This document shows positions 39,621 to 58,984 of a stretch of DNA of 64,000 nt, one piece after another. The stretch lies in NCBI GenBank assembly GCA_963769855.1, contig CAVYNN010000007.1, positions 558 through 64,557 on the forward strand, in the 5' to 3' direction. Each line of letters begins with the position of its first letter. Position 1 is the stretch's first letter. Both the position numbers and the translations under genes were made by a program. This DNA comes from an uncultured Actinomycetota bacterium (lineage in GTDB: Bacteria > Actinomycetota > Actinomycetes > Actinomycetales > Cellulomonadaceae). The notes beneath the pieces are model-generated. The model saw only the letters and a program-made list of their open reading frames with translations, had not been told where the DNA came from and made no database searches.

Positions 39621-40096
39621 CCGAGACGACGGCCGCGACCGCGGTCCACCAGGAGATCACCGTCGGCGTGGCCCAGGACCGGGCCTTCGCCGTGTTCACC
39701 GAGCGGTTCGACGAGGTCAAGCCACGCGAGCACACGCTGCTCACCGTGCCGATCGCCCGGAGCGTGCTCGAGCCGTTCGTCGGTGGCCTGCTATACGACC
39801 TGGCCGAGGACGGCTCGACGCTGGTCTGGGGCGAGGTCCTGGTCTTCGAGCCACCGGCGCGGCTGGTCCTGGGCTGGCACCTCGACCCGCAGTTCGAGGT
39901 GGAGGCCGACCCGGCCCGGTGGAGCGAGGTCGAGGTGCGGTTCGTCCCCGAGGCGCCGGACCGCACCCGTGTGGTGCTGGACCACCGGCACCTCGACCGG
40001 CACGGCGCCGGCTGGGAGTCGGAGCGCGACGGGGTCGCCGGGCAGAACGGCTGGCCGCTGTACCTGGCGAGGTTCGCGGCGGCGGCCGGGCGCTGA
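39617..40096 (+). CDS. SRPBCC / AHSA1-like protein
   Basis: 159 aa, with a 4-nt overlap with the ArsR gene. This is the usual ArsR-SRPBCC pair, called on arrangement and size. Confidence 0.6.
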   Translation: MTETTAATAVHQEITVGVAQDRAFAVFTERFDEVKPREHTLLTVPIARSVLEPFVGGLLYDLAEDGSTLVWGEVLVFEPPARLVLGWHLDPQFEVEADPARWSEVEVRFVPEAPDRTRVVLDHRHLDRHGAGWESERDGVAGQNGWPLYLARFAAAAGR

Positions 40097-40126
40097 GGGC
40101 CGCAGTCTGGTCGATAGCATCGCCGC

Positions 40127-41914
40127 GTGAGTGCGCAGCCGAACGGCTTCCAGGACAAGGTCGCGTTCATCTGGAAAGTCGCGGACACGCTGCGTGGGCA
40201 CTTCAAGCAGCACGAGTACGGCTCGGTGATGCTGCCGCTGCTCGTCCTGCGCCGGATGGACGCCGTGCTCACCCCGACGCGGGAGAAGGTCCGTCAGGTC
40301 GCCGCGTCGTTCGGCGCCAAGCAGCGCGGCCCGGGCGAAGAGCTGCTGCTGCGGAGCACCGCCGGCGTGCCGTTCTACAACCTGTCGCCGCTGGACTTCC
40401 GCGGCATCCTCGCGGACCCGAACAACGTCGCCGAGAACCTCTGGGCGTACGTCAACGGCCTGTCGCCCGAGGCGTTCGAGATCATCGACCGCTACGACTT
40501 CGCCCCGAAGGTCACCCGGATGCAGGCCGGCGGCATCCTCTACCAGGTCCTGTCCGATTTCGCCGACCTCAAGATCGACCCCGGCTCGGTGCCCAACGAG
40601 ACGATGGGCCTGATCTTCGAGGAGCTGCTGCGCAAGTTCTCGGAGATGAGCAACGAGACCGCCGGCGAGCACTACACGCCGCGCGAGGTGGTCCGACTCG
40701 TCGTCGACCTGCTGCTCTCGGGCGAGGCGGCCGACGAGATCGAGGGCAAGACGAAGCCGGTCCGCACGGTGTTCGACCCGGCGGCCGGCAGCGGCGGCAT
40801 GCTCTCGGCCGCGATCGACCGGATCACCGAGCTCAACGCGACCGCGATCGTGCAGGTTTACGGCCAGGAGCTCAACCCCGAGACGTGGGCGATCGCGCGG
40901 TCGGACCTGTTCTTCAAGGGCGTCGACCAGCGCAGCGAGGTCGTCCTCGGCAACTCGCTGACGCAGGACGCGTTTCCGGGCCAGAAGTTCGACTACATGC
41001 TCGCCAACCCGCCCTACGGCGTGGACTGGAAGTCCTACGCCAAACCCATCCAGGCGGAGGCGGCCAACGAGGGCTTTGCCGGTCGGTTCGGCGCCGGGCT
41101 GCCACGTGTCAGCGACGGCAGCCTGCTGTTCCTCCAGCACATGCTCAGCAAGATGAAGTCCGGCTCCCGGATCGGGATCGTGCTGAGCGGGTCGCCGCTG
41201 TTCTCCGGCGGCGCCGGTTCCGGGGAGTCGGAGATCCGGCGCTGGATCCTCGAGAGCGACTGGCTCGAAGGCATCGTCGCGCTGCCGGACCAGATGTTCT
41301 ACAACACCGGCATCTCGACGTACGTGTGGGTGCTGACCAACGCCAAGCCCGCGCACCGGGCCGGGAAGGTCGCGCTCGTCGACGGCCGCGAGCTATTCGC
41401 CAAGATGCGCAAATCGCTCGGGGACAAGCGCAAGTACCTGCCCGACGAGGCGATCGCGACGATTGTCGAGCTCTACCAGGACCTGCCCGACGACCCCCGG
41501 GTCAAGGTGGTGCCCAACGAGGCCTTCGGCTTCCAGCGGGTGACGGTGGAACGGCCGCAACGTTCTGGGGACGACGAGGATGCGCCCGTCGTGATGGTGA
41601 AGGGCAAGCCGGTCGCAGACGCCTCGCTGAGGGACTCCGAGAACATCCCGCTGCCCGCCGGGTATCTGGAGATGTCCGACGAGCAGAAGACGAAGGCACT
41701 CGTCGAGCAGGCCGAGGAGCACCTGCGGACCGAGATCCACCCGTATGTGCCGGACGCCTGGCTCGACCACGCCAAGACGAAGGTCGGCTACGAGATCCCG
41801 TTCACGCGGCAGTTCTACGTGTACACGGCCCCGCGGCCGGTCGAGGAGATCGCTGGAGAGATCCGTGGGCTCGAAGTCCAGATCCAGGAGTGGATGAAGG
41901 GGCTCGGGTTGTGA
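40127..41914 (+). CDS. hsdM: Type I restriction-modification system, N6-adenine methyltransferase subunit
   Basis: HsdM_N-like start FQDKVAFIWKVADTLRG, SAM motif VFDPAAGSGGML, catalytic MLANPPYG. Confidence 0.9.
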   Translation: MSAQPNGFQDKVAFIWKVADTLRGHFKQHEYGSVMLPLLVLRRMDAVLTPTREKVRQVAASFGAKQRGPGEELLLRSTAGVPFYNLSPLDFRGILADPNNVAENLWAYVNGLSPEAFEIIDRYDFAPKVTRMQAGGILYQVLSDFADLKIDPGSVPNETMGLIFEELLRKFSEMSNETAGEHYTPREVVRLVVDLLLSGEAADEIEGKTKPVRTVFDPAAGSGGMLSAAIDRITELNATAIVQVYGQELNPETWAIARSDLFFKGVDQRSEVVLGNSLTQDAFPGQKFDYMLANPPYGVDWKSYAKPIQAEAANEGFAGRFGAGLPRVSDGSLLFLQHMLSKMKSGSRIGIVLSGSPLFSGGAGSGESEIRRWILESDWLEGIVALPDQMFYNTGISTYVWVLTNAKPAHRAGKVALVDGRELFAKMRKSLGDKRKYLPDEAIATIVELYQDLPDDPRVKVVPNEAFGFQRVTVERPQRSGDDEDAPVVMVKGKPVADASLRDSENIPLPAGYLEMSDEQKTKALVEQAEEHLRTEIHPYVPDAWLDHAKTKVGYEIPFTRQFYVYTAPRPVEEIAGEIRGLEVQIQEWMKGLGL

Positions 41915-43137
41915 GGCTCAAGCACGTTTGCGTCGATAACGGGCAGTACGGACTGCTTGTGTCGCCCGACGCGTACCGCGATTCAGGCGTTCGTCTCATC
42001 CGGATAGGCGATCTCGCAGCGGGGAACCTCGCTGACGAGGGGATCTACGTCGAGGGCCCCGTCGCTGAACGCCATCGTCTCGCAGAGGGCGACCTGCTCT
42101 TGTCCCGGTCGGGCACGGTGGGAAGGGCGTACTCGGTGCCAAGTGCTGCGAGTGGCTCAACTTTTGCCGGCTTCCTCATTCGCTTCCGGCCTCGTGATGC
42201 TCGATCGTGCAGGTTTCTCGCATACGCCACGCAGTCTCGCCATTTCCAGGACCAAGTGGCTGCCGGCTCGGTGACCAGCACGATCGACAACTTCAATGCC
42301 GACAGATACGCCAACATCGAGATTCCCTTTCCTGACCTGGACGAGCAGCGGCGGATCGCGGACTTCCTCGACGACCAGGTCTCCCGCATCGACAACGTCA
42401 TCGCCGCCCGTCAGCGGCAAGTGGCTCTGACCGAGTCGATCGGCCGCTCATCGCTGCAATGGGATCTCGACGTGCTAGGCGTCCGATACGGCTGGGTACG
42501 ACTGCGCCACGCTATTCGCGGCATGGAGCAAGGGTGGTCGCCGCAGGCAGACGCCTACCCAGCTCCCGAGGATTCCTGGGGCGTCATGCGCGCTGGTTGT
42601 GTCAACGGCGGCCATTTCGACGCCGAGGACAACAAGGTTCTGCCGGACGGCATCGATCCGCGCACGGAGTACGAGGTCCGGCCCGGAGACCTTCTGATGT
42701 CGAGGGCGAGTGGTTCGATCGAGCTGATCGGGAGCGTGGCAGTCGTGCCGAGTGATGTGCGGCCGCGCCTGTTGCTCTGCGACAAGCTCTATCGGATCGA
42801 CGTTCGCCCTAGGTGGGACCGTGAGTTCGTGGCATTTGCGCTGCGAGGTCAGCACAATCGCGAGCGCATCCGGCTCGGGGTGAGCGGGGCCGAAGGAATG
42901 GCGAACAACCTGCCATCCGGCGTGATCCGCGACTTGCTCTTACCCAACGCACCGCGACCCGTCCAGTCCGGGGCTGCGCGGCGTTTTGCGGAACTGAACG
43001 CCGACTCCCAGCACGGGCGCGATGCCCTCGCACGCTTCATCGACCTGCTGGCGGAGTACAAGCAGTCACTCATCACCGCCGCCGTCACGGGCGAGCTCGA
43101 CGTGACAACGGTGTCCGCTCTCGCGCTGCCGGCCTGA
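41911..43137 (+). CDS. hsdS: Type I R-M specificity subunit
   Basis: GTG overlaps the hsdM stop (GTGA). Two variable TRDs are separated by LDEQRRIADFLDDQVSRIDNVIAARQRQ and close with LLAEYKQSLITAAVTGELDV. Confidence 0.85.
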   Translation: MRLKHVCVDNGQYGLLVSPDAYRDSGVRLIRIGDLAAGNLADEGIYVEGPVAERHRLAEGDLLLSRSGTVGRAYSVPSAASGSTFAGFLIRFRPRDARSCRFLAYATQSRHFQDQVAAGSVTSTIDNFNADRYANIEIPFPDLDEQRRIADFLDDQVSRIDNVIAARQRQVALTESIGRSSLQWDLDVLGVRYGWVRLRHAIRGMEQGWSPQADAYPAPEDSWGVMRAGCVNGGHFDAEDNKVLPDGIDPRTEYEVRPGDLLMSRASGSIELIGSVAVVPSDVRPRLLLCDKLYRIDVRPRWDREFVAFALRGQHNRERIRLGVSGAEGMANNLPSGVIRDLLLPNAPRPVQSGAARRFAELNADSQHGRDALARFIDLLAEYKQSLITAAVTGELDVTTVSALALPA

Positions 43138-43214
43138 CCCGACCTTGCTGCTCGCGTGCTCTGGGGCCGTGTCAGTGCCGGGGAGCACGATCTCCCACAA
43201 GAGGAGGTGAGGAG

Positions 43215-43442
43215 ATGGCTGACTACGACGTCTACAAGGACGGCGAGGAGTGGAAGGCCAAGCGATCCGACGCTGGCCGAGCGGCATCGACGCACTCGAC
43301 GCAGGCCGACGCGATCGACGCGGCACGCGGCTACACCACGCGGTCTGGTGGTGGCGAGCTGAGCATCCATGCAGTCGACGGGCACATCCGCGCCAAGGAC
43401 ACGATCCCGCCGGGGAACGACCCGGTCCCGCCCGCAGGCTAG
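43215..43442 (+). CDS. DUF2188-like small protein
   Basis: 75 aa, with a strong RBS AGGAGGTGAGGAG upstream. YDVYKDGEEWKAKR...STQADAIDAARGY resembles DUF2188 from memory. Confidence 0.6.
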   Translation: MADYDVYKDGEEWKAKRSDAGRAASTHSTQADAIDAARGYTTRSGGGELSIHAVDGHIRAKDTIPPGNDPVPPAG

Positions 43443-43461
43443 ATCCGGAGACCGATACCTG

Positions 43462-43500
43462 ACGTGCCGCCGTAGGCCTCCACGAGCTACGGCGGCACGT
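43462..43500 (+). terminator. 14-bp perfect stem-loop after the DUF2188 gene
   Basis: ACGTGCCGCCGTAG-(11 nt)-CTACGGCGGCACGT. No clear U-tract follows. Confidence 0.4.
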
Positions 43501-43571
43501 TCACGCTGCAAGGCGAACGACACGCTGGGTGGGTGTCGGCGCGGGCCAGGGAGGGCGGTATATTTACTGGC

Positions 43572-44192
43572 ATGTTTTCACCACGAGAGTCGGACGACGT
43601 CCTCGGCGAACTCGGCGACAAGTTTCCGCTCGCGCTGGTCAGGGCCACGGAACGCGCCCGCGACGACCTGCGGGCGCTTCGCGCGTGGCAGCCGCGTTGG
43701 GTTGCCACGATGTTCCAGCGCGAAGTGGCGGGCATCGTCCATGCGCGGATTTGGGACTACGTGACGTCGGACCTCGACGGGGTGGACGGCATTAGCCTCC
43801 GCACCAGTGAGCCGTACCGCGAGGTGCGGATCAGCACTCCGCTCGGCCGCACGTTTCGCGTCCGGGTGAAGAGGCACTCGGAGAGCGATCGGATCAGCTC
43901 GTACCCGACGCCGTCCGACCTGGAGTTCTGGGCGGGCGCCGAGCCAACGTTCGAGGGCCTTGAGGACATCCCCTTGGCGGCTGGCTATCGCTGGGAGGCG
44001 GAGACCGGCGACGTCGGGGCCCCCGTCATCTCGTATCGCGAGGGCAAGCACAATGTCATCTGGGCGGTCGAGGTCGACGGCGGGGTGGCGAGCGGCACGA
44101 CGCCGATCCGCTACACGCCGATCCCGACGCCGGAACTGCCGACGATCGACCTTGCGCGCGGCACCCGCGAGGAGGAGCGCGACGCACGATGA
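43572..44192 (+). CDS. Hypothetical protein with no recognisable domain; candidate toxin/effector partner of the downstream XRE-M78 fusion
   Basis: 206 aa from ATG 43572. TATATT (43559-43564) ends 7 nt upstream, which would fit a leaderless mRNA. The stop overlaps the next start (ATGA at 44189-44192). The ORF track start at 43533 is an alternative. Confidence 0.55.
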   Translation: MFSPRESDDVLGELGDKFPLALVRATERARDDLRALRAWQPRWVATMFQREVAGIVHARIWDYVTSDLDGVDGISLRTSEPYREVRISTPLGRTFRVRVKRHSESDRISSYPTPSDLEFWAGAEPTFEGLEDIPLAAGYRWEAETGDVGAPVISYREGKHNVIWAVEVDGGVASGTTPIRYTPIPTPELPTIDLARGTREEERDAR

Positions 44193-45244
44193 GTGGGATC
44201 GGTGAGGTCCTCGAGACCGCACGCCGGGCCCGGGGGTTGACGCAGGAAGAGCTGGCGGGCGTCGCTGAAGTGACGCAGGCGGCACTGTCCCGCTACGAGC
44301 ACGACCTGCGGACGCCCGAGCCGGAGGTCCTGACGAGGATTGCCGCGGCCCTCGGCGTGACACCCGACCTGCTGACTCGTGGTGGGCGCATGGAGGGCGG
44401 CATCGCCGTCGGTGCGCACATGCGCCGACGGGCCACTGCGAAGGCGACGGTGTGGCGAGAGCTGGAGGCCAGGCTTAACATGCTCCGGCTCCACACGGCG
44501 CGCTTGATGGACGACGTGAACATGCACACAGACCGGCAGGTCCCGACGTTCGACCCTTCGGACGTCTCGCCCTCGGCCGCAGCCCGGATGCTCCGGATCC
44601 AGTGGCGTATCCCGGTGGGGCCGATCCACTCCCTCGCGGCGTGGCTCGATGCGGCTGGCGTACTCGTCGTCGAGCAGGACTTCGGACCGGCGGCGCGTGT
44701 CGACGGACTCTCTCAGTGGTCGGGGGCGTATCCGATCGTCTTGGTCAACAGCGCGGCGCCGCCGGACCGCAAGCGACTGACGCTCGCCCACGAGCTCGGC
44801 CATCTGGTGTTGCACACGTCGTACGTCGATGAGCACGTCGAGGACCAGGCCAACGAGTTCGCCGCCGAGTTGCTCATGCCGGCCGACGAGATCCGGCCCA
44901 TGTTGCGTCAACGGCTCACCCTGACCCGGCTTGTCGACCTCAAGCGCTACTGGGGGGTTTCGATCCAGGCGATTGTCGAGCGCGCCTACCGGCTCGGCCT
45001 CCTGGCGGCCGCTCAGCGCATGTCGCTGTACAAGCAGCTCAGCGCAAGGGGGATGCGCACCCACGAGCCCGCCAGCGACGAGCTCACTCCCGAGGTGCCG
45101 CGGCTCGCGCGCCACATAGCCGAAACTCTGCGCGACCGCGGGCTGACGGCGGGCGAAATCGCGCTACTTGCGGGCTACGACTCGCCGGAGGACAACACCC
45201 TCTTCCCCATAGGCGCCTCCGCGTCCGGATTGCACGCGGTCTGA
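44189..45244 (+). CDS. XRE-family HTH fused to an ImmA/IrrE (M78, COG2856) zinc metallopeptidase
   Basis: HTH LTQEELAGVAEVTQAALSRYEHDLRTPEPEVLTRIAAALGV. HExxH as LAHELGHLVLH, followed by EDQANEFAAELLMP. Confidence 0.85.
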   Translation: MSGIGEVLETARRARGLTQEELAGVAEVTQAALSRYEHDLRTPEPEVLTRIAAALGVTPDLLTRGGRMEGGIAVGAHMRRRATAKATVWRELEARLNMLRLHTARLMDDVNMHTDRQVPTFDPSDVSPSAAARMLRIQWRIPVGPIHSLAAWLDAAGVLVVEQDFGPAARVDGLSQWSGAYPIVLVNSAAPPDRKRLTLAHELGHLVLHTSYVDEHVEDQANEFAAELLMPADEIRPMLRQRLTLTRLVDLKRYWGVSIQAIVERAYRLGLLAAAQRMSLYKQLSARGMRTHEPASDELTPEVPRLARHIAETLRDRGLTAGEIALLAGYDSPEDNTLFPIGASASGLHAV

Positions 45245-45526
45245 CGATCCTTGCCCGACACCTCCTAGGAGGGGGCGGCTGGACCAGGCGGCGCATCCAC
45301 TGGCAGCCGCCGTCACAACCGCCGTCGACCAGCTCGCCGCGGCGGTCGGGGTCTCGCCGGGCAGCCTCGACGGGTTCGTCGGACCGGAGGCGACCTGGGG
45401 TGCTGCTGACCGTCAGCGACCGCCGTTCGCTCGTCGGGCGCGGAAGGTCCCTCAATCCGAGGCTCGCAGGTGCCGAGAGATCGGTACCCGCCGGTGGTCG
45501 TCGGGCATCGAGCGAAGGGGCTCGCC

Positions 45527-45901
45527 GTGATCGACTTCCAGAACGCCTCGTACATCAAGCTCTCGCCGTGGGACCCTGCCGACGCAATCAAGGCCCTCGA
45601 CGGCATCCTCATCGCGGGCGAGCAGGTGCACTTGGCGTTCAAGGGCATCCGCGACTCGGTCACCTTCACCGACAAGCGGATCGTTGCGCTCAACGTGCAG
45701 GGCATGACCGGCAAGAAGAAGGACTTCACCTCGCTGCCCTACGCGCACATCCAGGCCTTCTCGGTGGAGACTGCCGGCACGTTCGACCTCGATTCCGAGC
45801 TCGAGCTGTGGTTCTCCGGGCTGGGCAAGGTCAAGCTGGAGTTCGCCGGGCGCGTCGACATCCGGTCGCTCAGCTACCTCATCGCCGACAAGGTGCTCTG
45901 A
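45527..45901 (+). CDS. Bacterial PH-domain (YokE-like) protein
   Basis: A GTG 7 nt after AGGGG gives 124 aa: IDFQNASYIKL...GEQVHLAFKGIRDSVTFTDKRIVALNVQGMTGKKKDFTSLPY..I.AFSVETAG. The ORF track start at 45470 is an alternative. Confidence 0.6.
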   Translation: MIDFQNASYIKLSPWDPADAIKALDGILIAGEQVHLAFKGIRDSVTFTDKRIVALNVQGMTGKKKDFTSLPYAHIQAFSVETAGTFDLDSELELWFSGLGKVKLEFAGRVDIRSLSYLIADKVL

Positions 45902-45936
45902 CTCCACCAGTCTCGCTCAGGGCGAACACAATTCGC

Positions 45937-45952
45937 TCGAACAGGTGTTCGA
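45937..45952. promoter_or_regulatory. LexA (SOS) box, actinobacterial type
   Basis: TCGAACAGGTGTTCGA matches TCGAAC-N4-GTTCGA at all 12 defined positions. It lies 81 nt upstream of the DUF222/HNH start. Confidence 0.7.
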
Positions 45953-46032
45953 TCCGGTGTCGGATTCGGGTAGCATTGTCGCAGTTCAGGCACCATATCC
46001 GAGGTGCCGCTCGGCAGTGTGAGGGGGCGACC

Positions 46033-47445
46033 GTGGAACGCAGCACGCACCCGTTGGCGGGCGCTCTCACAGCCGCCGTGAACGGCGTGGTCCGGGCCGT
46101 GCAGGCCTCGTCAACCGGGCTGGGCGGGCTGTCGCAGGACGAGGCGCTCGAGCTGCTGCTGACCCTGGTCGCGCAGTCCGGCCGGTTGACCGTCGCCGCT
46201 GCCCGGCTGTCGACGACGGTGGACGACGACGGGATGTGGGCCACGGACGGCGCACGCTCGTTCGCGCACTGGCTGGCGGCCCGCACGGGCATGTCCTTCG
46301 CGAAGGCCCGGGAAACCGTGGCCACCGGCCGCGCGCTGCGCGACCACCTGCCGGCCACCGCTGTCGCGGGCTTGGCCGGGGAGGTTGCCGTGGAGCAGGT
46401 GGCGACGTTGGCGAAGCTGGCGCCGACCAGTAAGGCTCGCCAGACGGTGCTGGCGGCTCCGGCCGAGGAGTGCGGTGAGGAGTTCCTGCTGGCCGAGGCC
46501 CGCGTGCAGCCGGCCGACTCCTTCCGGCGGCTGGTCCGCCGCTGGGCGGCCGCTGCCGACCCGCAGGCCGACGAGCGCGGCTACCGCGAGGCGTGCGAGC
46601 GGGAGTTCGTCGCGGTGGCCCCTACCTTGGACGGTTGGCACCTGGCAGGGTTCCTGACCACGGAGCACGGTGCCCTGTTCGCTGCCGCTCTGGACGGCGT
46701 GATGACCCCGCCGGCCTCCGACGATCCGCGCAGCTACCAGCAGCGCCGCGCCCAGGCGGTAGCCGACGCGTCTCGCCTCCTCCTCGAGAACGGCCTGGTC
46801 GGCACCGGCTCGGCCGTGCGCCCGCACCTGTCGGTCGTGGTCGACTTCGACACCCTGCGCCGCGCCGTGCTGGACGGCCGCGAAGCCGCCGAGAGCGACC
46901 GCGGGACCGTCGAGAACGACCACAGGGCCGATGAGGACGACCGCACGAGCGATGAGACCGGGACAAGCTTCCGCCGGGTGACCGACCAGGCCAGGTCCGG
47001 GTGCCTGTTCCGGCTCGCCCCGGTGGCCGATGTGGAACGCTTCGCAGTCGCCGAGGTCCTGGGCGCCGGGCCGATCCCTTCCTCGGTGCTAGCCCGACTG
47101 GCCTGCGACAGCGAGATCAGCCGGGTCGTGTTCGGCCCGGACTCCCAGGTGATCAACGCCGGCCGCGCCGAACGCACCTTCTCCGGCCCACGACGCAAAG
47201 CCGTCATCGCCCGCGACGGGCACTGTCGCTACCCCGGGTGCACCGCACCACCGGCGCTCGGGGAGATCCACCACGTCGAGCAATGGGCTAGAGACCACGG
47301 CGATACCGACATCAACCTCGGCATTCTCCTGTGCTGGCACCACCATGACCTGGTCCATCGGCTGCACATCGAGATCCGTCGATCTCCCACCGGCGGGTGG
47401 CTGTTCCTCACCCGACACGGCGACCCCGTTGCAGCCGCGGTCTGA
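46033..47445 (+). CDS. DUF222 / HNH endonuclease (REP13E12-like)
   Basis: GTG after GAGGGGG. The N-terminus is DUF222-like (GLSQDEALELL...WATDGARSFAHWLAARTGMS). C-terminal HNH block CRYPGC...EIHHVEQWARDHGDTDINLGILLCWHHHDLVH. Confidence 0.8.
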   Translation: MERSTHPLAGALTAAVNGVVRAVQASSTGLGGLSQDEALELLLTLVAQSGRLTVAAARLSTTVDDDGMWATDGARSFAHWLAARTGMSFAKARETVATGRALRDHLPATAVAGLAGEVAVEQVATLAKLAPTSKARQTVLAAPAEECGEEFLLAEARVQPADSFRRLVRRWAAAADPQADERGYREACEREFVAVAPTLDGWHLAGFLTTEHGALFAAALDGVMTPPASDDPRSYQQRRAQAVADASRLLLENGLVGTGSAVRPHLSVVVDFDTLRRAVLDGREAAESDRGTVENDHRADEDDRTSDETGTSFRRVTDQARSGCLFRLAPVADVERFAVAEVLGAGPIPSSVLARLACDSEISRVVFGPDSQVINAGRAERTFSGPRRKAVIARDGHCRYPGCTAPPALGEIHHVEQWARDHGDTDINLGILLCWHHHDLVHRLHIEIRRSPTGGWLFLTRHGDPVAAAV

Positions 47446-47502
47446 CGCTGGCTTACTGCGCGCGCGCATGTCGTCGGTCAGGTGTCGAGGCGCCCCAACG
47501 CC

Positions 47503-47994
47503 CTACGGGCGCAGGACGAGCGCGGCATTCGTAGCGCGCAGCGCAGCGAAGGTGTCTGCGTAGGGCACGCCGATCGCGAGGCACGCATCGGGGATAAGGA
47601 TGCGCCTGTGTGAGCCCGGTGCCGGCCGCTCGTGCGTCACAACGGTATCGCCGTGCGCCTTGGCATACGCGACGAGGTAATAGTCCGCGGTGTTGCCCAG
47701 GAACTCTGAGATCGCGGCGGCCGTGTAGCTCTGCGAGTTAGCCCACTGTGTGAGCACGGGGAACTCGCGGATGGTCGCAGCGTCGACGGGGCGGAAGAAC
47801 GGCCCATGAGCCGCTGCCCACGCGGCCAAGGGATCGTCGCCGGCGACGAGCTCGTCGCGGACCGGCTCGATGCTGCACACCGACCCGGTGCTGTGGCCGA
47901 GACCGAGCCAGTCCCAGAAGCCCGGCGCGATGTCGAACCCGTAGTAGCGGTTCTTCGCCTCGATGAAGACGTTGGAGTCGAGCACGTACATCAC
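47503..47994 (-). CDS. DUF4411 (PIN-like) protein
   Basis: MMYVLDSNVFIEAKNRYYGFDIAPGFWDWL. The start overlaps the stop of the upstream peptidase gene by 4 nt. Confidence 0.7.
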   Translation of the reverse strand: MMYVLDSNVFIEAKNRYYGFDIAPGFWDWLGLGHSTGSVCSIEPVRDELVAGDDPLAAWAAAHGPFFRPVDAATIREFPVLTQWANSQSYTAAAISEFLGNTADYYLVAYAKAHGDTVVTHERPAPGSHRRILIPDACLAIGVPYADTFAALRATNAALVLRP

Positions 47995-49163
47995 GCGACC
48001 CCCAACTCGGTCGCGAGGTTCTCGAACGTCTCGTGCCTCTTGGTGCCCAGGAGTCGGTACGCGTCGCGGTACGCGGTGCCACCTTCGAGAGCATCGCTGA
48101 TGACGGATCGGGCGAACTTGCGGGAGAGGCGGATCGGCTGCGTGTAGTAGTAGTTCCCGCCGCCACTCTCGCCCCGGCGCGCGGACATGGCGTCGATCAC
48201 CCTGTCGCGCTCGTCGGCGTACCGCACGCGGTAGTCGTCCCAGTCGAGGAATCGGGCGTCGAATAGCCGCTTGAGGATGACAAGCGTGCTCACTCGGTAT
48301 CGCCGCGCCAGACGCTCGAGCTCGGCGACGGTGGGTTCACCGCGATAGTCGGACTGAAGGGCTCCGAGCGGGACGAGCACCTCCGCAGCGACCCGGTTGC
48401 ACCAGATTTCGGTGGCGTTGTCACTCCGACGGGCCATGGCCGCGTCGGACAGCGCGCTGCCGCCGAGCCAGGCGTGGGCAAGCTCGTGTACGAGAGTGAA
48501 GATCTGCGCTGCCTTGGTATCCGCGCCGTTGACGAACACGACGGGCGCGATCGGGTCCACGAGCGTGAAGCCGCGGAACTCCTCGGGATCCAGCGGGCGG
48601 TGCGTGTTCGTCCCCACGATCCCGCTGATCATGACCAGGACGCCCGTGTCCTCGACGAGGTCGATCAGGCGGCGCAGTGCGTCTTCCCAGGAAGCGAAAC
48701 GCGCGCGATCGGCGAGCTCGAAGCCGAGGGACCGGCGGATCCGGTCGGCAGCGATCTCGTGGGGTGTCCTCACGGTCACGGAGCCAATGTCCAAGACCTC
48801 AGGCAGTCCGTGCAGGTTGGCGTAGTTGCGGTACCAGTCCTGGCGTGCTTGACAGAGGTAGATGGTGTCGAGCAGGTCCGCCGAGGGTCGCTCGATCGCA
48901 TGGTTGCCGTGCGTCCGCATGTCCGGAATCGGCAAAGGCTCGTCGGGCGGCTCCTGAAGGAAGAGGAGGCCGACCGGGGTATGGGTCGCCGCGGCGAACC
49001 CCTCCAGCTGCTTGAGTGTGGGCCGATGTCCGGCGATCCATCCGGCAGCATGTGGCGCTCGAGCCGCGAGCTCCTCATCCGTCCACCGAGCCCGCTCGAT
49101 GGCCCACTGCAGGAGCTCAGGCCGGACCTCGACTCTGAGCACCACCGGAATCACCACCCCCAT
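47991..49163 (-). CDS. ImmA/IrrE-family metallopeptidase with a degenerate N-terminal HTH
   Basis: HExxH as LVHELAHAWLG, and an N-terminal LQWAIERARWTDEELAAR...PTLKQLEGFAAATHTPVGLLFL. Start at ATG 49163 or 49217. Confidence 0.75.
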   Translation of the reverse strand: MGVVIPVVLRVEVRPELLQWAIERARWTDEELAARAPHAAGWIAGHRPTLKQLEGFAAATHTPVGLLFLQEPPDEPLPIPDMRTHGNHAIERPSADLLDTIYLCQARQDWYRNYANLHGLPEVLDIGSVTVRTPHEIAADRIRRSLGFELADRARFASWEDALRRLIDLVEDTGVLVMISGIVGTNTHRPLDPEEFRGFTLVDPIAPVVFVNGADTKAAQIFTLVHELAHAWLGGSALSDAAMARRSDNATEIWCNRVAAEVLVPLGALQSDYRGEPTVAELERLARRYRVSTLVILKRLFDARFLDWDDYRVRYADERDRVIDAMSARRGESGGGNYYYTQPIRLSRKFARSVISDALEGGTAYRDAYRLLGTKRHETFENLATELGVA

Positions 49164-49365
49164 GTCGTCAGATCGTTGCTGGAACGTCTGACATCGCACC
49201 TGATCAGCCGGGCTCATACAGATGTGGTGCGGTCGGCTCCGCCTCGTCCTGGCGGGACATCAGCCACCGTACTGCGCATGCGGTGCCACCTTCGATATCC
49301 GAGGTCGTTGCGCCCACCCGCACAACCTGGGACGACGCGGTCAAGAAGCCGATACCGTCGCCTGC

Positions 49366-52356
49366 GTGAGCGTCCACACGGAGCAGGCGTTCGAGGCGAC
49401 CATCGAGCAACATCTGCTCGGTGCCGGCTGGCGGCGGCTCGAGCCGGCTGGCTACGACCGGAGCCTCGGCCTGTTCCCCGACGAGCTGCTGGCGTTCATC
49501 GCGACGTCGCAGCCCGACGAGTGGAAGCAGCTCGTCCTGCGGCTCGGAGGCCCGGATCTCGCCCGCTCGAAGGTGGTCCAGCACATCTCGTCGCTCCTGG
49601 ACCACCGCGGCGCCATCAGCGTGCTGCGCTCCCCGGTGAAGCTCAACGGTGTCACCTTCCGCACCTGCTTCTTCAAGCCCGCCAACACGCTGACGCCGAA
49701 GCTCGTCGAGCGCTACGACGCGAACCGCACGGCGATCGTCCGCCAGCTGCACCACAGCGAGTCGAACTCTGCCGACTCGGTGGACGTCGCACTCGTCGTC
49801 AACGGCATCCCGACGGCCACCGCCGAGCTGAAGAACGGGCTGACTGGCCAGACCTTCAGCGATGCGGTGCGGCAGTACCGCACCGACCGCAACCCTGCCG
49901 ACCTGATCTTCCGGTCGCGAGCCGTCGTCCACTTCGCCGTGGACCCGCACCAGGTCTACATGACGACGAGGCTCGAGAAGCTCGCCACCCGGTTCCTGCC
50001 GTTCAACCAGGGCGGCGGCGGCCCTGGCCACAGAGGCGGCGCTGGGAACCCGGGCAATCCCGACGGCTACGACACTGCCTACCTGTGGGAGCAGGTGTGG
50101 CAGCGCGACGCCTGGCTGGACCTCCTCGGTTCGTTCGTGCACGTCGAGGACGGCACCGTGCTGTTCCCGCGGTTCCACCAGTGGCACGCCGTGCGGTCGA
50201 TCATCGCCGCGACCCTTCGCGACGGCGCCGGCACCAACCGGCTGATCCAGCACTCCGCCGGCTCCGGCAAGTCCAACACGATCGCCTGGACGGCCCACGC
50301 GCTGTCCCGGCTGCACGACGAGACGAACTCCCCGATCTTCGACAAGGTCGTCGTCATCACCGACCGCGTGGTGCTCGACCGCCAGCTTCAGGACACCGTC
50401 GCCGGCCTGGAGCACACGCCAGGCACGATCGTGCGGATCGACAAGGACTCCGCCCAGCTCCATCAGGCGCTGGCAGGCAACGCCGCCCGGATCATCATCA
50501 CCACGCTGCAGAAGTTCCCCGTGGTGGCGACGATGGCCGCCGAGGTGGTCGGGCTCCACTTCGCGGTGATCGTCGACGAGGCGCACTCCTCGACCTCCGG
50601 CGAGTCGATCAAGCAGCTCCAGGCGGTGCTGTCCACCGGCGAGATCGCCGAGCTGACAGCCGAGGAGACCGACGCCGACGAGGGCGTCGACCTCGGGACC
50701 GACGTCATCGCACACTCGGCCGCGGCTCGTCGGGCTCAGCACAACCTCAGCTACCTCGCGTTCACCGCAACGCCGAAGCCGAAGACGCTCAACCTGTTCG
50801 GCGAGCTGGTGCCCGGGACGCCGGACACGTACGTGCCGTTCCACCTGTACTCGATGCGGCAGGCGATCGAGGAGCGCTTCATCCTCGATGTGCTCGCTAG
50901 CTACACGACCTACCAGACCTACTTCAAGCTGGCCACGTCCACGCCCGAGGACCGCGAGGTGCGGGTGGACGAGGCCCGGGCCGAGCTGGCCCGGTTCGTC
51001 GCCCTGCACCCAACGAATCTGTCGGCCAAAGCCCGGATCATCGTCGAGCACTTCCGGGCCAAGACCCGCGGCAAGATCGCCGGCCACGCCAAGGCGATGG
51101 TGGTGACGCGCTCGCGGCAGCACGCGGTGCGGTACTTCCAGGCGATCAGTGCGTACATCAAGGAGAAGGGCTACGACTCGGGGCCGCACCCCCTCGGCGT
51201 GCTCATCGCGTTCTCCGGGACGCTGAACGACGAGGGCGTCGCCTACACCGAGCCGATGCTCAACGGGTTCGGCGAGGCCGAGCTGCCGAAGCGCTTCGAG
51301 ACCGACGACTACCAGTTGCTCGTCGTCGCCGAGAAGTACCAGACGGGGTACGACCAGCCGCTGCTGCACACCATGTACGTCGACAAGAAGCTCGCCGGTG
51401 TCCGAGCCGTGCAGACGCTGTCCCGGCTCAACCGCACCCACGACGACAAGACCGACACGTTCATCCTCGACTTCGCGAACACGGTCGAGGAGATCCAGGA
51501 CGCCTTCGCGGGCTTCTATGAGTCCACGTCGGCCCTGGTCGCCGACCCGAACGACATCTACAACCTGCTCCACACGCTGATGACCCTCCCCGTGCTCGAC
51601 GAGGCCGAGATGGACCAGGCCGTCGCAGCCCTGCTGTCCGGGCAGCAGTCGAAGCAGCAGGTGGTCTACGCGATGACCGGCCGCGCGGTGGCGCGTTTCG
51701 GGGGCTTGGACGACGACCAGCAGGACTTGTTCCGGGGCGCGCTGAACGCCTACGTGCGGGCGTACACGTTCTTCGCCCAAGTGATGACGTGGACCGATCG
51801 CGAGCTCGAGCGCCTCTACCTCTTCGGCAAGGCCCTGGTGACCCAGCTGCCGCGCCACGCGGACGACCCGATGCCGCAGGTCGCCGACGAGGTCGAGCTG
51901 ACCCACCTGCGCACCGCACTCATCGCCGAGGAGGAGAACGCCGCCCTCGACGCCGGGAGTGAGGAGCCGGGCCAGGTGCTGCCCGGCGAGGGCAAGGGCG
52001 GTCAAGACCCCCTGGTCGACAAGCTCTCCGCGCTGATCGAACGGCTGAACGATAAGTTCGGTGTCGGAACCACGGACGCGGACAAGGTCTGGTTCACCCA
52101 GCAGCGCCTCGACGTCATGGCGGACGACGAGCTGCGGGTGGTCGCCCTCAACAACGACCGCGACGGGTTCGAGCTGGTGCTGGGTCAGCGGGTGCCGCAC
52201 CACGTCGCGAAGCGCCACCAGGAGAACCAGAAGATGTTCGACCTGTTCTTCGGCAACCCGCGGTTTCAGCGGATGGTGGTCCAGTACATGGGCGACGTGT
52301 ACGACGAGTTCCGCGCGGATGAGGTGGCGGCGCCGGCCGGGCCGAGCGCCGGGTAG
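49366..52356 (+). CDS. hsdR: Type I restriction enzyme R subunit (helicase-nuclease)
   Basis: GTG 49366 gives VSVHTEQAFEATIEQHL (HSDR_N). Walker A QHSAGSGKSNT and DEAH box VIVDEAHSS. The 48 codons upstream in the ORF track look non-coding. Confidence 0.9.
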   Translation: MSVHTEQAFEATIEQHLLGAGWRRLEPAGYDRSLGLFPDELLAFIATSQPDEWKQLVLRLGGPDLARSKVVQHISSLLDHRGAISVLRSPVKLNGVTFRTCFFKPANTLTPKLVERYDANRTAIVRQLHHSESNSADSVDVALVVNGIPTATAELKNGLTGQTFSDAVRQYRTDRNPADLIFRSRAVVHFAVDPHQVYMTTRLEKLATRFLPFNQGGGGPGHRGGAGNPGNPDGYDTAYLWEQVWQRDAWLDLLGSFVHVEDGTVLFPRFHQWHAVRSIIAATLRDGAGTNRLIQHSAGSGKSNTIAWTAHALSRLHDETNSPIFDKVVVITDRVVLDRQLQDTVAGLEHTPGTIVRIDKDSAQLHQALAGNAARIIITTLQKFPVVATMAAEVVGLHFAVIVDEAHSSTSGESIKQLQAVLSTGEIAELTAEETDADEGVDLGTDVIAHSAAARRAQHNLSYLAFTATPKPKTLNLFGELVPGTPDTYVPFHLYSMRQAIEERFILDVLASYTTYQTYFKLATSTPEDREVRVDEARAELARFVALHPTNLSAKARIIVEHFRAKTRGKIAGHAKAMVVTRSRQHAVRYFQAISAYIKEKGYDSGPHPLGVLIAFSGTLNDEGVAYTEPMLNGFGEAELPKRFETDDYQLLVVAEKYQTGYDQPLLHTMYVDKKLAGVRAVQTLSRLNRTHDDKTDTFILDFANTVEEIQDAFAGFYESTSALVADPNDIYNLLHTLMTLPVLDEAEMDQAVAALLSGQQSKQQVVYAMTGRAVARFGGLDDDQQDLFRGALNAYVRAYTFFAQVMTWTDRELERLYLFGKALVTQLPRHADDPMPQVADEVELTHLRTALIAEEENAALDAGSEEPGQVLPGEGKGGQDPLVDKLSALIERLNDKFGVGTTDADKVWFTQQRLDVMADDELRVVALNNDRDGFELVLGQRVPHHVAKRHQENQKMFDLFFGNPRFQRMVVQYMGDVYDEFRADEVAAPAGPSAG

Positions 52357-52359
52357 GTC

Positions 52360-53799
52360 TCAGGCCTTTCCGACGAGCTCGGGCGTGCGCTCGTCGGCCG
52401 GCGCCTGGTCGCGCGCGGCCACCCACCGTCCGGGCAGCCAGCAGCAGGCGACGAGCGCGAGCGCGGTGAACCCGACCGCCCACCAGAACGCGCGGTGGAA
52501 CGCCGCGAGCGGGTCGCCGGTCACCTGGACCGCGGCGTCGAGCACCACGGCGAGGATCGCGGTGCCGAAGGCGCCGCCCACCTGCTGGGAGATCCTGGTG
52601 AGCACCGAGGCGTGCGGCACCTCGTCGGGCCTGGTGTCGAGGTACGCCACGGTCATCACCGGGATCATCGCGCCGCCCAGGCCGAAGCCGCGGACGAGAA
52701 GGACCGTGACCAGCCACCACGTGCTCGTCGTCGGGCCCGCGAAGGCGAACGGGACGGTCGTCAGTGCGACGAGGAAGAACGCGGCCATCGTGACGGCCCG
52801 GGCGCCGATCGCGTCGGTCAACCGGCCGGCCAGCACGCGGCTGAAGATCGACCCGACGCCCTGCGGCACCATCATCAGGCCGGCCGTCAGCGCGGTGGCG
52901 CCGCGCACCTGCTGCCAGAACAGGGGCAGCAGCAGCATGGTGCCGAGCGTCGAGGCGCCCACGACGAACAGCGCGGCCGACGACGAGCCCACCGACCGCA
53001 GCCGCAGCAGCCGCACGTCGACCAGGGCGGCGCCGCGTCCGCGCACCGCATGAGCGACGAACGCGGCGACCAGCACGACACCGACCGCGAGCGGGACGAG
53101 CACCCGCGGATGGCCGAAGCCGTCGTCCACGCCCACCTGCGACAGCCCGTAGAGGAGCCCGACGAGGCCACCGGGCAGCAGCAACGCCCCGACGCCGTCG
53201 AGCGGCACGCGCGCGGCGAGCCGGGAGGCGGGCACCCAGGCGCGGGCCAGGATGAAGCCGACGACGAGGAGCGGCACGTTGATCCAGAACATCCAGCGCC
53301 AGTCCAGCCAGTGGAGCACGGCGCCGCCGACGAGCGGGCCCAGCACCGGGCCGAGCACCGCCGGAAGGCTGACGAGCGAGACGAGCCGGCCGGTGACCTT
53401 GCCGGCCATCGCCTGCATCGGCAGCGTCGTCATGAGCGGCATGAGGATGCCGCCGCCGATGCCCTGCAGCGCCCGCGCCGCGATCAGCCAGCCGACGGTG
53501 GGCGAGAGGCTGGCGGCGACCGAGCCGAGAAGGAACAGCGTGAGGCCGGCCAGCCAGAGGTTCCTGCCTCCGACGCGCCCCTGGGCCCACACCGCGAGGG
53601 GGATCGCGACGGCCAGCGCGAGCAGGTAGCCGGTGGACACCCACTGGATGGTGGCCAGCGACGCGTGCAGGTCGGTGGCGAGCGTCTGGACGGCGATCGA
53701 GACGATCGTCGAGTCGAACAGGACGGCGATGCCGCCGACGAGCGTCGCGACGACCACGCGGACCAGGCGCGGGTCGAGCTTCTCGGTGGTCCCTGACAT
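52360..53799 (-). CDS. MFS transporter, DHA2 (EmrB/QacA-like) drug efflux family
   Basis: 479 aa from ATG 53799 with about 14 hydrophobic segments. Its stop lies 3 nt from the hsdR stop. Confidence 0.8.
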   Translation of the reverse strand: MSGTTEKLDPRLVRVVVATLVGGIAVLFDSTIVSIAVQTLATDLHASLATIQWVSTGYLLALAVAIPLAVWAQGRVGGRNLWLAGLTLFLLGSVAASLSPTVGWLIAARALQGIGGGILMPLMTTLPMQAMAGKVTGRLVSLVSLPAVLGPVLGPLVGGAVLHWLDWRWMFWINVPLLVVGFILARAWVPASRLAARVPLDGVGALLLPGGLVGLLYGLSQVGVDDGFGHPRVLVPLAVGVVLVAAFVAHAVRGRGAALVDVRLLRLRSVGSSSAALFVVGASTLGTMLLLPLFWQQVRGATALTAGLMMVPQGVGSIFSRVLAGRLTDAIGARAVTMAAFFLVALTTVPFAFAGPTTSTWWLVTVLLVRGFGLGGAMIPVMTVAYLDTRPDEVPHASVLTRISQQVGGAFGTAILAVVLDAAVQVTGDPLAAFHRAFWWAVGFTALALVACCWLPGRWVAARDQAPADERTPELVGKA

Positions 53800-56322: not shown

Positions 56323-56395
56323 GCCGCCTTAGCTCAGTCGGCAGAGCGTCTCACTCGTAATGAGAAGGTCCCGAGTTCGATTCTCGGAGGCGGCT
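56323..56395 (+). tRNA. tRNA-Thr (anticodon CGT/CGU)
   Basis: Cloverleaf by hand. Acceptor GCCGCCT/AGGCGGC, D arm GCTC-AGTCGGCA-GAGC, anticodon arm TCTCA-CTCGTAA-TGAGA (CGT at 56356-56358), T arm CCGAG-TTCGATT-CTCGG, discriminator T. 73 nt. Confidence 0.9.
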
Positions 56396-56415
56396 CAGAT
56401 ATAGCAGCAGGTCAG

Positions 56416-57044: not shown

Positions 57045-57158
57045 TAGGCGAACGTACGGCGTGTGGGTGGTCGGGCATACGTTCGCGCGGCAGGCGTGGC
57101 TCCCACGCCCCGGGCGCGTGCGCGGGTAGCGTCGCGCCAACGAAGCGAGGGGTGGCAA

Positions 57159-58115: not shown

Positions 58116-58984
58116 GTACCGCCGAGCCGCTGTTCGCTGCTGCGCGCGCTCAGTTCCACGCCGGGCTGCTGAGGGACCACATCCTGACGGTCGACGGTCG
58201 TGGTGTCGCGAGCAACGCGGACAGCGGCAGCCGGGCAAGCTGCGCGTACGCCGCGCACCTCGCTCGCGCGTTGCAGGTCGAGACGGGTCAGTCTCGGCTC
58301 GCAGGGCAAACGTCCGGCGGCGGGTTCGAACAGGCGTGCGCCGACTTCCTCAACGAGACGTTCCCAGCGCTGCACCACCTGCGGCCCGGTGATTGGACCA
58401 TCCAGAAGGTCGGCGGGCGTGGGGAAGCGGCCGGTGTGGCGCGGTTCGAGCAGTACGCGCACCTCGTGGAGCTGACCGAGGCGGTCCGTCACAACCCGGC
58501 GCTGCGTGCGGTGCTCGGTAACGGTTAAGCGATCGCGCCTGATGTCGTGGTGTTCCGTGAGCCCGTTTCTGATGCGGATATCAACGCCTTCGAGTGGCTC
58601 GTTGATGACACTGTCGCGCTCAGCGCATCACTGCGCGCCGTGGTGCAGCCCAGGCCAATCCTTCACGCTGTGGTGTCCTGCAAGTGGACGCTGCGTTCGG
58701 ACCGCGCACAGAACGCCCGCAGCGAGGCCCTGAACCTCGTCCGGAACCGGAAGGGCCGTCTCCCGCACATTGCAGTCGTCACAGGCGAGCCGACTCCAAC
58801 CCGCATCAGTTCGCTCGCGCTCGGCACAGGCGACATCGACTGCGTGTACCACTTCGCGCTTCCCGAGCTTGTCGCGGCAGTCCGCGCAGAAGGCGCCGAC
58901 GACACGATCGAGCTGCTCGACATGATGATTGACGGCAAGCGGCTCAAGGACATCTCAGACCTGCCGCTCGACCTCGCGGTCTAG
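58112..58984 (+). pseudogene. NgoMIV-family (CCGG-family, PD-D/ExK) type II restriction endonuclease interrupted by an in-frame TAA
   Basis: GTGA overlap with dcm. The N-terminal half ends ...AVLGNG, then TAA at 58526-58528. The same frame continues AIAPDVVVFREP...VVSCKWTLRSDRAQNARSEALNLVRNRKGRLPH...GKRLKDISDLPLDLAV. I recognise this as NgoMIV-like along its whole length. Confidence 0.8.

Follow-up and report, generated by a model that had tools for sequence, protein, structure and literature searches.

How does a type I restriction-modification (R-M) operon fare when other genes come to separate its restriction gene from the genes for methylation and specificity? The question is raised by a 64-kb stretch of DNA (the window) from an uncultured member of the Cellulomonadaceae (GenBank contig CAVYNN010000007.1), in which seven genes lie between hsdS and hsdR. 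The reading we favor, with a probability of about 0.72, is that an acquired type I R-M locus had its hsdS-hsdR junction filled in at least two steps with self-contained modules. An older core, common to a relative with an 85% identical HsdR, would unite a bPH_1 gene, a DUF222-HNH gene with a LexA box, and a VapBC52-like pair in inverted orientation. A segment of 2.3 kb after hsdS would be newer and would have brought in a DUF2188 gene (a PDC-S16 candidate) and a RosmerTA-like pair. The genes of the locus, with lengths in amino acids (aa), are as follows.

40127-41914, plus strand: hsdM, type I methyltransferase subunit, 595 aa (Pfam N6_Mtase 1e-60, HsdM_N 2.8e-21; PADLOC MTase_I 1.8e-225)
41911-43137, plus strand: hsdS, specificity subunit, 408 aa (Pfam Methylase_S 3e-9, one stretch; PADLOC Specificity_I 2.6e-50)
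43215-43442, plus strand: DUF2188 small protein, 75 aa (Pfam DUF2188 1.4e-17; PADLOC PDC-S16; phrog_3220 7e-12)
43572-44192, plus strand: 206-aa protein, candidate RmrT-like toxin (no family match; paired with the XRE-M78 gene)
44189-45244, plus strand: XRE helix-turn-helix (HTH) and M78/ImmA-IrrE peptidase protein, 351 aa, HELGH motif, predicted RmrA-type antitoxin (HTH_3 2.5e-14, Peptidase_M78 1.9e-22)
45527-45901, plus strand: bPH_1 PH-domain protein, 124 aa, GTG start, longest open reading frame (ORF) from 45470 (Pfam bPH_1 2.3e-38; phrog_7115 9e-43)
46033-47445, plus strand: DUF222 (13E12 repeat family) protein with a C-terminal HNH motif, 470 aa (Pfam DUF222, PF02720, 6e-28)
47503-47994, minus strand: DUF4411 PIN-like nuclease, 163 aa, predicted VapC52-like toxin (Pfam DUF4411 6.6e-45; PDB 9VZY chain D 2.5e-8)
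47991-49145, minus strand: HTH-like N-terminal domain and IrrE/M78 peptidase protein, 384 aa, HELAH motif, predicted VapB52-like antitoxin (Peptidase_M78 4.9e-15)
49366-52356, plus strand: hsdR, restriction/translocase subunit, 996 aa, intact (Pfam HSDR_N, ResIII, SWI2_SNF2, T1R_D3-like; NCBIfam hsdR 2.4e-55)

The interrupted operon and its relatives

The sequence has a guanine-cytosine (GC) content of about 70%, at which the raw ORF list of the window is full of spurious frames. Genes were selected by the periodicity of GC at third codon positions (GC3), and then by matches to Pfam, PADLOC, NCBIfam and PHROGs. The PADLOC run on the window returned matches to MTase_I, Specificity_I, RmrA and PDC-S16.

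HsdM, HsdS and HsdR are predicted to constitute a type I R-M system, interrupted between hsdS and hsdR, with methylation and restriction as predicted activities. The GTG start of hsdS runs into the TGA stop of hsdM, forming a 4-bp overlap (GTGA), and hsdR is on the same strand. The common direction of the three genes given in the original prediction is thus borne out, and the overlap agrees with the translational coupling of hsdM and hsdS described there. PADLOC Specificity_I matches two stretches of HsdS, in keeping with two target-recognition domains. HsdM is 86% identical in amino acid sequence to that of the relative L097. The HsdR translation shows D...ExK nuclease and DEAH motifs and aligns with relatives over its full length; publicly available annotation of the contig gives the same GTG start and 996 aa (P0169). 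The contiguous hsdM-hsdS-hsdR order seen in most relatives is not found in the window. The gap between hsdS and hsdR (43138-49365) measures 6228 bp and contains exactly seven genes, five on the plus strand and two on the minus strand. The predicted number of genes was therefore correct, but they are not all unrelated to one another, as four form two overlapping pairs of toxin-antitoxin type.

At the DNA level, hsdS matches L097 and a second relative, L001, only in conserved central and C-terminal segments (42337-42410 and 43041-43109); hsdM and hsdR align over their whole length. Close relatives therefore differ in their target-recognition domains and so in recognition sequence, as is usual in type I systems.

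GC content is 0.62-0.74 (mostly below 0.70) over 40000-52500, compared with 0.72-0.79 in the flanks. The flanks contain housekeeping genes, with topA and holB upstream and tRNA-Thr downstream. The entire type I R-M locus therefore looks horizontally acquired.

A scan with HsdM identified 80 loci, mostly from Actinomycetota, and hsdR is visible downstream in 60. There is room only for hsdS between hsdM and hsdR in 48 of the 60, and the spacing is wider in the other 12. Cargo was annotated in 10 of these 12 (L013 and L014 being near-duplicates), and also in L038, whose contig ends inside an M78 gene. The wide spacing of L076 is due to an unusually long hsdS, and no cargo is present. The junction cargo in relatives includes ParD/ParE, VapBC, Fic/DOC (three loci), an MNT-like nucleotidyltransferase, DUF4268, CBASS SMODS and SAVED, and M78 with DUF4411 (L024 and L038). 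The hsdS-hsdR junction thus appears to be a recurrent insertion hotspot in this R-M family. The original prediction considered that homologous loci might always carry one conserved unit; the comparison of junctions shows a variable cargo and no such unit.

Three relatives bear directly on the history of the cargo. In L001, whose HsdR is 78% identical, hsdMSR is contiguous and hsdS overlaps hsdR. L097, with an HsdR 85% identical, possesses the same ArsR-AHSA1 flank, hsdM and hsdS, followed by bPH_1, DUF222, DUF4411 (minus strand), M78 (minus strand) and hsdR; it lacks the segment corresponding to window 43110-45439. L098, with an HsdR 87% identical, displays the same divergent M78/hsdR junction. 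A near-identical copy of the locus was sought, and with the closest HsdR at 87% identity there is no strain-level comparison. As L097 contains only four of the seven genes, the cargo appears to have grown in at least two steps, first a four-gene core and then a 2.3-kb addition, composed of the DUF2188 gene and the RosmerTA-like pair, directly after hsdS.

Synonymous divergence between the window and L097 is about 0.33-0.42 for hsdM, hsdR and bPH_1, 0.64 for DUF222, and about 1.2 for M78/DUF4411. The last comparison, between window 47503-49145 and L097 6514-8159, gives a divergence three times that of hsdR, hsdM and bPH_1. Against L098, the values are 0.36 for M78/DUF4411 and 0.39 for hsdR. The divergence of about 1.2, set against about 0.4 in the flanking genes, suggests a later exchange in which the M78/DUF4411 module was replaced in place in one lineage.

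Several other loci of the family display related arrangements. In L096 (6687-12988), an HsdR identical to that of L097 is preceded by DUF222, DUF4411 (minus strand) and M78 (minus strand), and a cysS-like tRNA synthetase gene lies upstream of DUF222 in place of hsdM-hsdS-bPH_1. Either the DUF222 gene, which is prone to recombination, was the site of a genuine rearrangement, or the metagenome was misassembled at a repeat. The junction of L058 (13187-21412) contains a CBASS-like set (SMODS 7e-20, SAVED 1e-27), an XRE HTH gene and a GNAT gene, and this 8.2-kb cargo is the only one larger than that of the window. In L060, an N-terminal fragment of hsdR (14654-14935; 50% identical, residues 3-96) lies inside a 5-kb cargo, upstream of the full hsdR, and may have been left behind when R-M loci recombined as cargo was acquired. 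Genes related to those of the cargo are also found near, not inside, other loci of the family (L001 5431-6315, L064 6572-6880, L009 18920-19225 and L058 9512-9853). Cellulomonas chitinilytica has an RmrA-like gene 4 kb before hsdM, Kytococcus sedentarius has a bPH_1 gene 3 kb before it, and DUF222-HNH fragments adjoin two further loci.

Modules of the cargo

The cargo genes are accompanied by the following signals.

43461-43501, plus strand: terminator-like hairpin with a perfect 15-bp stem and no T-run, directly 3' of the DUF2188 gene
43559-43564, plus strand: TATATT, -10-like box inside the conserved GGTATATTT motif, 7 nt to the ATG of the 206-aa gene
45937-45952, plus strand: LexA (SOS) box TCGAACAGGTGTTCGA, exact TCGAAC-N4-GTTCGA, the sole exact match in the 64-kb window

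The DUF2188 protein matches two PDC-S16 models of PADLOC (1.7e-17 and 2.2e-16). PDC-S16 is a defence candidate family whose own definition came from genes found within BREX, DISARM or type I R-M loci (Payne et al. 2024, bioRxiv 10.1101/2024.01.29.577857). The gene is preceded by a strong AAGAGGAGG ribosome-binding site and is absent from L097. It is probably the last gene of the hsdMS transcription unit. The hairpin that follows it has a folding energy of -39.9 kcal/mol (z = -3.0 versus shuffles), and its arms are unique within the window.

The next two genes resemble RosmerTA (RmrT/RmrA; Millman et al. 2022; Ernits et al. 2023, PMC10440598), a class that combines a Zn-peptidase antitoxin with variable toxins in either gene order (Ernits et al. 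2023). The 44189-45244 protein shows the fusion of an XRE HTH to an ImmA/M78 zinc peptidase that characterizes RmrA. It matches 14 RmrA models of PADLOC (RmrA 2.2e-56) and phrog_2439 (1.8e-80); its match to the NCBIfam spr1629-family antitoxin (4e-34) is under the cut-off of that model. As in RosmerTA, the partner gene lies upstream and overlaps, toxin-first being the order of 58% of the class, and homologs of the pair are present in phage-derived sequence. The partner itself differs from those of RosmerTA. It falls outside the described RmrT proteins, Pfam families, and solved or viral predicted folds, and it has no predicted membrane segments like those of the phage Kita toxin, a feature judged without a formal test.

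The 206-aa protein has no match in Pfam, PADLOC (even at E<=10), NCBIfam or PHROGs. Its family comprises 48 close homologs, and 397 clusters at 50% identity. An AlphaFold2 model was obtained with a pLDDT (predicted local distance difference test) of 87 and a pTM (predicted template modelling score) of 0.82, and a Foldseek search found no match to the predicted fold in PDB or BFVD at E<0.001. EcoRV and UL24 appeared as weak Foldseek rows with TM (template modelling) scores of about 0.3 and were dismissed as noise.

Six distinct loci with a homolog of the 206-aa gene were examined. An XRE-M78 gene lies downstream with a 4-bp overlap in five of them (L081, L083, L085, L086 and L099), down to about 40% protein identity. 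In L084, no XRE-M78 gene was called on the strand of the homolog, and tblastn reveals XRE-M78-like sequence just downstream. The contexts of the pair include housekeeping neighborhoods, an island with Wadjet and hsdR in Cellulomonas fimi, and a viral contig. Because the pair is found repeatedly, its overlap preserved, in unrelated surroundings and on a viral contig, it is predicted to be an autonomous module. A third component was considered and rejected, as the genes downstream in L081 and L085 resemble neither each other nor genes of the window.

Conservation of the pair extends to its start region. In the DNA ahead of genes of the 206-aa family, and continuing into their start, the motif GGTATATTT-N6-ATGTTTTC is conserved, including on one viral contig, among genes whose proteins are only about 40% identical. 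It is located at 43557-43574 in the window, 9986-10008 in L083, 7986-8008 in L084 and L085, 62-84 in L086, and 826-848 in L099. The shorter form GGTATATTT-N6-ATG was matched or visible in all homolog loci except L081/L082, where the translation only implied it. We infer that GGTATATTT marks a promoter of the pair's own, giving a leaderless transcript. Conservation of promoter and start in this family is unusually strong for a toxin-antitoxin-like module.

A PH-domain protein had been predicted in the cargo, and the bPH_1 match of the 45527-45901 product agrees with this. Its closest structures are PDB 3HSA and 3DCX (2e-20). It is 93% identical to the product of a 124-aa gene of L097, with a ratio of nonsynonymous to synonymous substitution rates (dN/dS) of 0.12. 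PADLOC at E<=10 returned nothing for the bPH_1, DUF222 or DUF4411 proteins.

The DUF222 protein displays an HNH signature in its translation (CRYPGC...HHVEQW...N...HHHDLVH), and no Pfam HNH model matches at E<0.01. It is 66-67% identical to the proteins of L097 and L096 (dN/dS 0.37-0.39), and only one DUF222 copy is present within the 64-kb window. Downstream of the LexA box by 18 nt lies a -10-like TAGCAT (45971-45976), which is kept in the window, L096 and L097; the box itself has one mismatch in L096 and is degenerate in L097. TCGAAC-N4-GTTCGA is the consensus SOS box, and LexA binds most 13E12/DUF222 members in Mycobacterium tuberculosis (PMC3381160). The SOS box of the predicted HNH nuclease is therefore perfect, but it is a trait of the 13E12/DUF222 family and not specific to this locus. 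The gene resembles REP13E12/DUF222 of mycobacteria in its DUF222 domain, accompanied by the putative C-terminal HNH motif read from the translation, and in a perfect mycobacterial-type SOS box over the promoter. Unlike the mycobacterial elements, it is a single copy in the window, sits inside an R-M operon, and belongs to a host that is not a mycobacterium, the closest relatives of the locus being Cellulomonas and allied Micrococcales. 13E12/DUF222 genes have been described as insertion elements and recombination hotspots, and the cargo gene is probably a selfish gene.

The two minus-strand genes overlap by 4 bp (47991-47994) and resemble VapBC52 of M. tuberculosis, the structure of which is PDB 9VZY (Singh et al., NAR 2026, PMC13273310). 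A literature search for '9VZY' gave irrelevant papers, and the link was made through the data-availability statement of PMC13273310. In VapBC52, single-stranded DNA (ssDNA) activates the IrrE-type peptidase, and the antitoxin cuts off its own N-terminal domain, freeing a tRNA-cleaving DUF4411 PIN toxin; VapBC52 confers phage protection on M. smegmatis (PMC13273310). It falls in the HTH-DUF955 with DUF4411 class, predicted earlier as a three-component toxin-antitoxin class (Matelska et al. 2017, PMC5499597).

The window pair has the same organization as VapBC52 (PDB 9VZY/9VZZ), a large antitoxin (~385 aa) followed by a DUF4411 toxin in overlapping ORFs. The antitoxin aligns with 9VZY chain A (1e-13) over residues 15-355, spanning the N-terminal, peptidase and part of the C-terminal domains, and also matches phrog_2439 (1.8e-36). 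The HEXXH motif (HELAH) and the third zinc ligand, a Glu, are conserved, and an Asp of the DUF4411 protein aligns with the catalytic D6 of VapC52. In one pairwise alignment, the 'FR' self-cleavage motif of VapB52, located where its N-terminal and middle domains meet, falls on 'MR' (ipdMRthg versus lrdFRrl). Pfam finds no HTH in the window protein. Its most likely start is GTG 49145, judged from homolog N termini and a Shine-Dalgarno-like GGGGGTGG, with ATG 49163 as the alternative. Unlike VapBC52, the pair lies inside an R-M operon and diverges from hsdR; activity is known for the M. tuberculosis proteins only.

The M78 and DUF4411 genes form an intact pair in every context examined, including five unrelated contexts without R-M genes, and the pair is likewise a predicted autonomous module. 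The two M78-type peptidase modules announced in the original prediction are found in opposite orientations, at 44189-45244 (plus strand) and 47991-49145 (minus strand). The two proteins share only 27% identity in the peptidase core and are therefore not duplicates.

Expression of hsdR and competing explanations

The region upstream of hsdR contains the following features.

49146-49365: divergent intergenic region between the VapB52-like gene and hsdR, 220 bp, aligned with L098 and L097
49167-49192: imperfect inverted repeat beside the VapB52-like start, partly conserved, left arm not kept in L097
49353-49358, plus strand: TACCGT (TANNNT), -10-like hexamer 7 nt before the hsdR GTG, kept in L098 and L097 (7-8 nt)

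Where relatives lack cargo, translational coupling links hsdR to hsdS. In the window, a hairpin, several independent units and two converging genes lie between hsdS and hsdR, and read-through from hsdMS into hsdR therefore appears unlikely. No Shine-Dalgarno sequence precedes the hsdR GTG. We infer a promoter just upstream of hsdR that gives a leaderless or near-leaderless mRNA. The predicted need of hsdR for its own promoter is thus very probable, given the hairpin, the converging genes and the conserved TANNNT hexamer. The divergent promoter region had been placed at 49164-49365; the arrangement is indeed conserved in the closest relatives, but the gap measures 220 bp rather than 202 bp, as the VapB52-like gene most likely starts at GTG 49145. 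Other signals were sought in the locus. A terminator consensus scan of 39900-52600 gave two chance-level matches only. The gap between the converging DUF222 and DUF4411 genes (47425-47525) folds no better than shuffles, and no bidirectional terminator was found there. Folding is not significant in the gaps between the XRE-M78 and bPH_1 genes and between the VapB52-like gene and hsdR.

Within the stepwise reading, the probable organization is as follows. The hsdM, hsdS and DUF2188 genes would form one transcription unit that ends at the hairpin. The RosmerTA-like pair would be expressed from its own conserved promoter as a leaderless transcript, LexA would repress the DUF222-HNH gene, and the VapBC52-like pair would be transcribed from the opposite strand. 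hsdR, severed from hsdMS, would be transcribed from its own promoter just upstream of the GTG. Restriction would constitute the first line of defence. Both ImmA/IrrE-type antitoxins would act, by homology, like VapB52 and CapP: ssDNA arising from infection or DNA damage would activate the metallopeptidase, the antitoxin would cleave itself, and the freed toxin would arrest growth. One pair would free a PIN nuclease that cuts tRNA, the other a toxin of unassigned activity. The modules may be co-located simply since defence loci tolerate and retain insertions, in which case mutual dependence would be unnecessary.

Several points weigh against this reading. A sigma-70 consensus scan of 39900-52600 found no promoter, a result that is expected and uninformative at this GC content. 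The promoters, the terminator and the leaderless starts were deduced from the sequence and its conservation among just three to six sequences. No insertion scars or recombinase were found, and a search for direct or inverted repeats flanking the cargo or its sub-blocks yielded short chance-level matches only. L095-L097 are metagenome-derived assemblies, and L096 is possibly misjoined at the DUF222 repeat. The 206-aa protein matches no RmrT model in PADLOC, and its role as a toxin is predicted only. The VapBC52-like pair has low sequence identity to VapBC52. In a single pairwise alignment, the cysteine-switch residue C229 of VapB52 aligns to a Ser (GGSALSDA versus TEGLCDV), and activation by ssDNA may therefore differ from that of VapB52. 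In addition, the bPH_1 and DUF2188 genes have no known role.

The VapB52-like protein might instead bind an operator in the 220-bp divergent region and co-regulate hsdR, like the controller (C) protein of an R-M system. We regard this functional coupling as unlikely. The divergent layout is conserved in all three lineages of the clade with an 85-87% identical HsdR, as would suit a shared promoter region, and the original prediction proposed such sharing; the evidence for an hsdR promoter does not in itself show sharing or control. We found no sign that restriction depends on the state of the embedded module, as the original prediction suggested it could. The partly conserved inverted repeat at 49167-49192 adjoins the start of the VapB52-like gene, but its left arm is not conserved in L097, and the putative hsdR -10 is about 190 bp from it. 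The N-terminal domain of VapB52 is structurally similar to the R-M controller C.Csp231I (PMC13273310), whereas the window protein has no Pfam HTH. VapBC52-like pairs were independently acquired at the same junction in L024 and L038. However, the M78-DUF4411 pair of L024 is co-oriented with hsdR and the M78 gene of L038 with hsdMS, and a divergent promoter is therefore no general feature. The same pair also occurs in at least five contexts without R-M genes.

A more ambitious joint reading, in which the cargo is no random collection, is improbable. Three units, namely both ImmA/IrrE-type sensors and the HNH gene under LexA control, are predicted to respond to ssDNA or DNA damage, and together they would make up a second layer of defence linked to restriction. 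Breaks made by HsdR, or replication of phage that escapes restriction, would generate ssDNA and both toxins would fire. The VapB52-like protein, with an N-terminal domain resembling R-M controller proteins, would set hsdR expression through the conserved divergent promoter, and the 206-aa toxin would have a previously undescribed fold.

It is also improbable that the R-M system is decaying, with hsdR orphaned, silent or on its way to loss and the locus reduced to an HsdMS methyltransferase and selfish toxin-antitoxin genes. Such decay would accord with the hairpin and converging genes that separate hsdR from hsdMS, with the negative consensus promoter scan, and with L096, which carries the HsdR protein of L097 without adjacent hsdMS. 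The second R-M system of the window, described below, has an inactivated restriction gene. However, the 996-aa ORF of hsdR is full-length and has both nuclease and DEAH motifs, and a -10-like hexamer is conserved directly before its start. Its dN/dS relative to other family members is 0.19-0.24 in all comparisons, and the values between cargo-bearing lineages equal those against the contiguous L001. This argues that hsdR is under purifying selection and still in use.

A further possibility, very improbable, is that the DUF222-HNH gene lies at the heart of one mobile element that makes up the cargo or its four-gene core, the other genes being passengers: the description of 13E12/DUF222 genes as insertion elements, the junction of DUF222-DUF4411-ImmA-hsdR to another upstream neighborhood exactly at DUF222 in L096, and the adjacency of bPH_1 and DUF222 in the window and L097 speak for it, but neither terminal repeats, inverted or direct, nor a transposase or integrase are present, the M78-DUF4411 pair occurs elsewhere without DUF222, the window has one DUF222 copy only, and the unequal synonymous divergence from L097 (bPH_1 0.33, DUF222 0.64, ImmA/DUF4411 about 1.2) argues against one co-inherited unit.

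The second R-M system of the window lies just after the tRNA gene, in DNA with a GC content of 0.62-0.70.

56323-56396: tRNA-Thr
57063-58115: Dcm-type C5 cytosine methyltransferase (DNA_methylase 1.5e-64)

The C5 methyltransferase gene is followed by an NgoMIV-like restriction gene with an in-frame stop at 58526-58528, and only the C-terminal half (58547-58984) matches NgoMIV_restric (4e-72). This system (57063-58984) looks like an orphaned methyltransferase beside a dead restriction gene.

Place among embedded defence systems

A systematic survey has covered defence genes nested in type I R-M loci and likewise in those of BREX, DISARM and Hma (Payne et al. 2024). The precedent named in the original prediction, PrrC in EcoprrI, is supported by that survey, a figure legend of which labels it almost exclusively type I-embedded. 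DarTG2 is located between hsdS and hsdR in the RRDM island of enteropathogenic Escherichia coli (EPEC; PMC12255303). The cargo had been described as a combination not recognized before; this does not hold, since nesting is already catalogued (Payne et al. 2024; PMC12255303) and both ImmA modules belong to described families.

Like the known embedded systems, the window locus has extra defence or toxin-antitoxin genes nested in an otherwise complete hsdMSR, and these vary between related loci. It shares the hsdS-hsdR junction with DarTG2 in EPEC, and its DUF2188 gene matches PDC-S16, a family defined through the embedding approach of Payne et al. The differences are equally clear. Embedded genes are co-oriented with the host system in 96.7% of cases (Payne et al. 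2024), whereas two of the seven window genes run antisense to hsdM, hsdS and hsdR. With 7 genes in 6.2 kb, the cargo is large; it is also composite and includes a probable selfish 13E12-family gene. In the RRDM island, a promoter has been characterized upstream of the whole seven-ORF island (PMC12255303), whereas the window hsdR appears transcriptionally separate. Unlike PrrC, the window cargo has no known dependence on the R-M system. A PrrC/RloC-type anticodon nuclease, with an ABC-ATPase-like N-terminal domain and a C-terminal anticodon nuclease domain, was also considered and rejected, as no cargo protein matches such PADLOC or Pfam models.

The locus fits the known nesting pattern and is a further instance of it. 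What sets it apart is a VapBC52-like pair in antisense orientation, a large cargo with a layered history, a 13E12 gene that is probably selfish, and an RmrA-like antitoxin whose partner is uncharacterized. The 206-aa family, a conserved partner of RmrA-type antitoxins with a confident predicted fold unmatched in PDB and BFVD, is a candidate new toxin. The VapBC52-type module stands beside hsdR in a rare antisense orientation, which allows one to ask whether an embedded antitoxin-regulator influences the restriction gene. hsdR itself appears to have been kept under selection after its separation from hsdMS. The current picture of defence islands is unchanged, and a well-resolved case is added to it: a restriction operon turning into a layered defence island, for which related genomes give three stages, with no cargo, four genes and seven genes.

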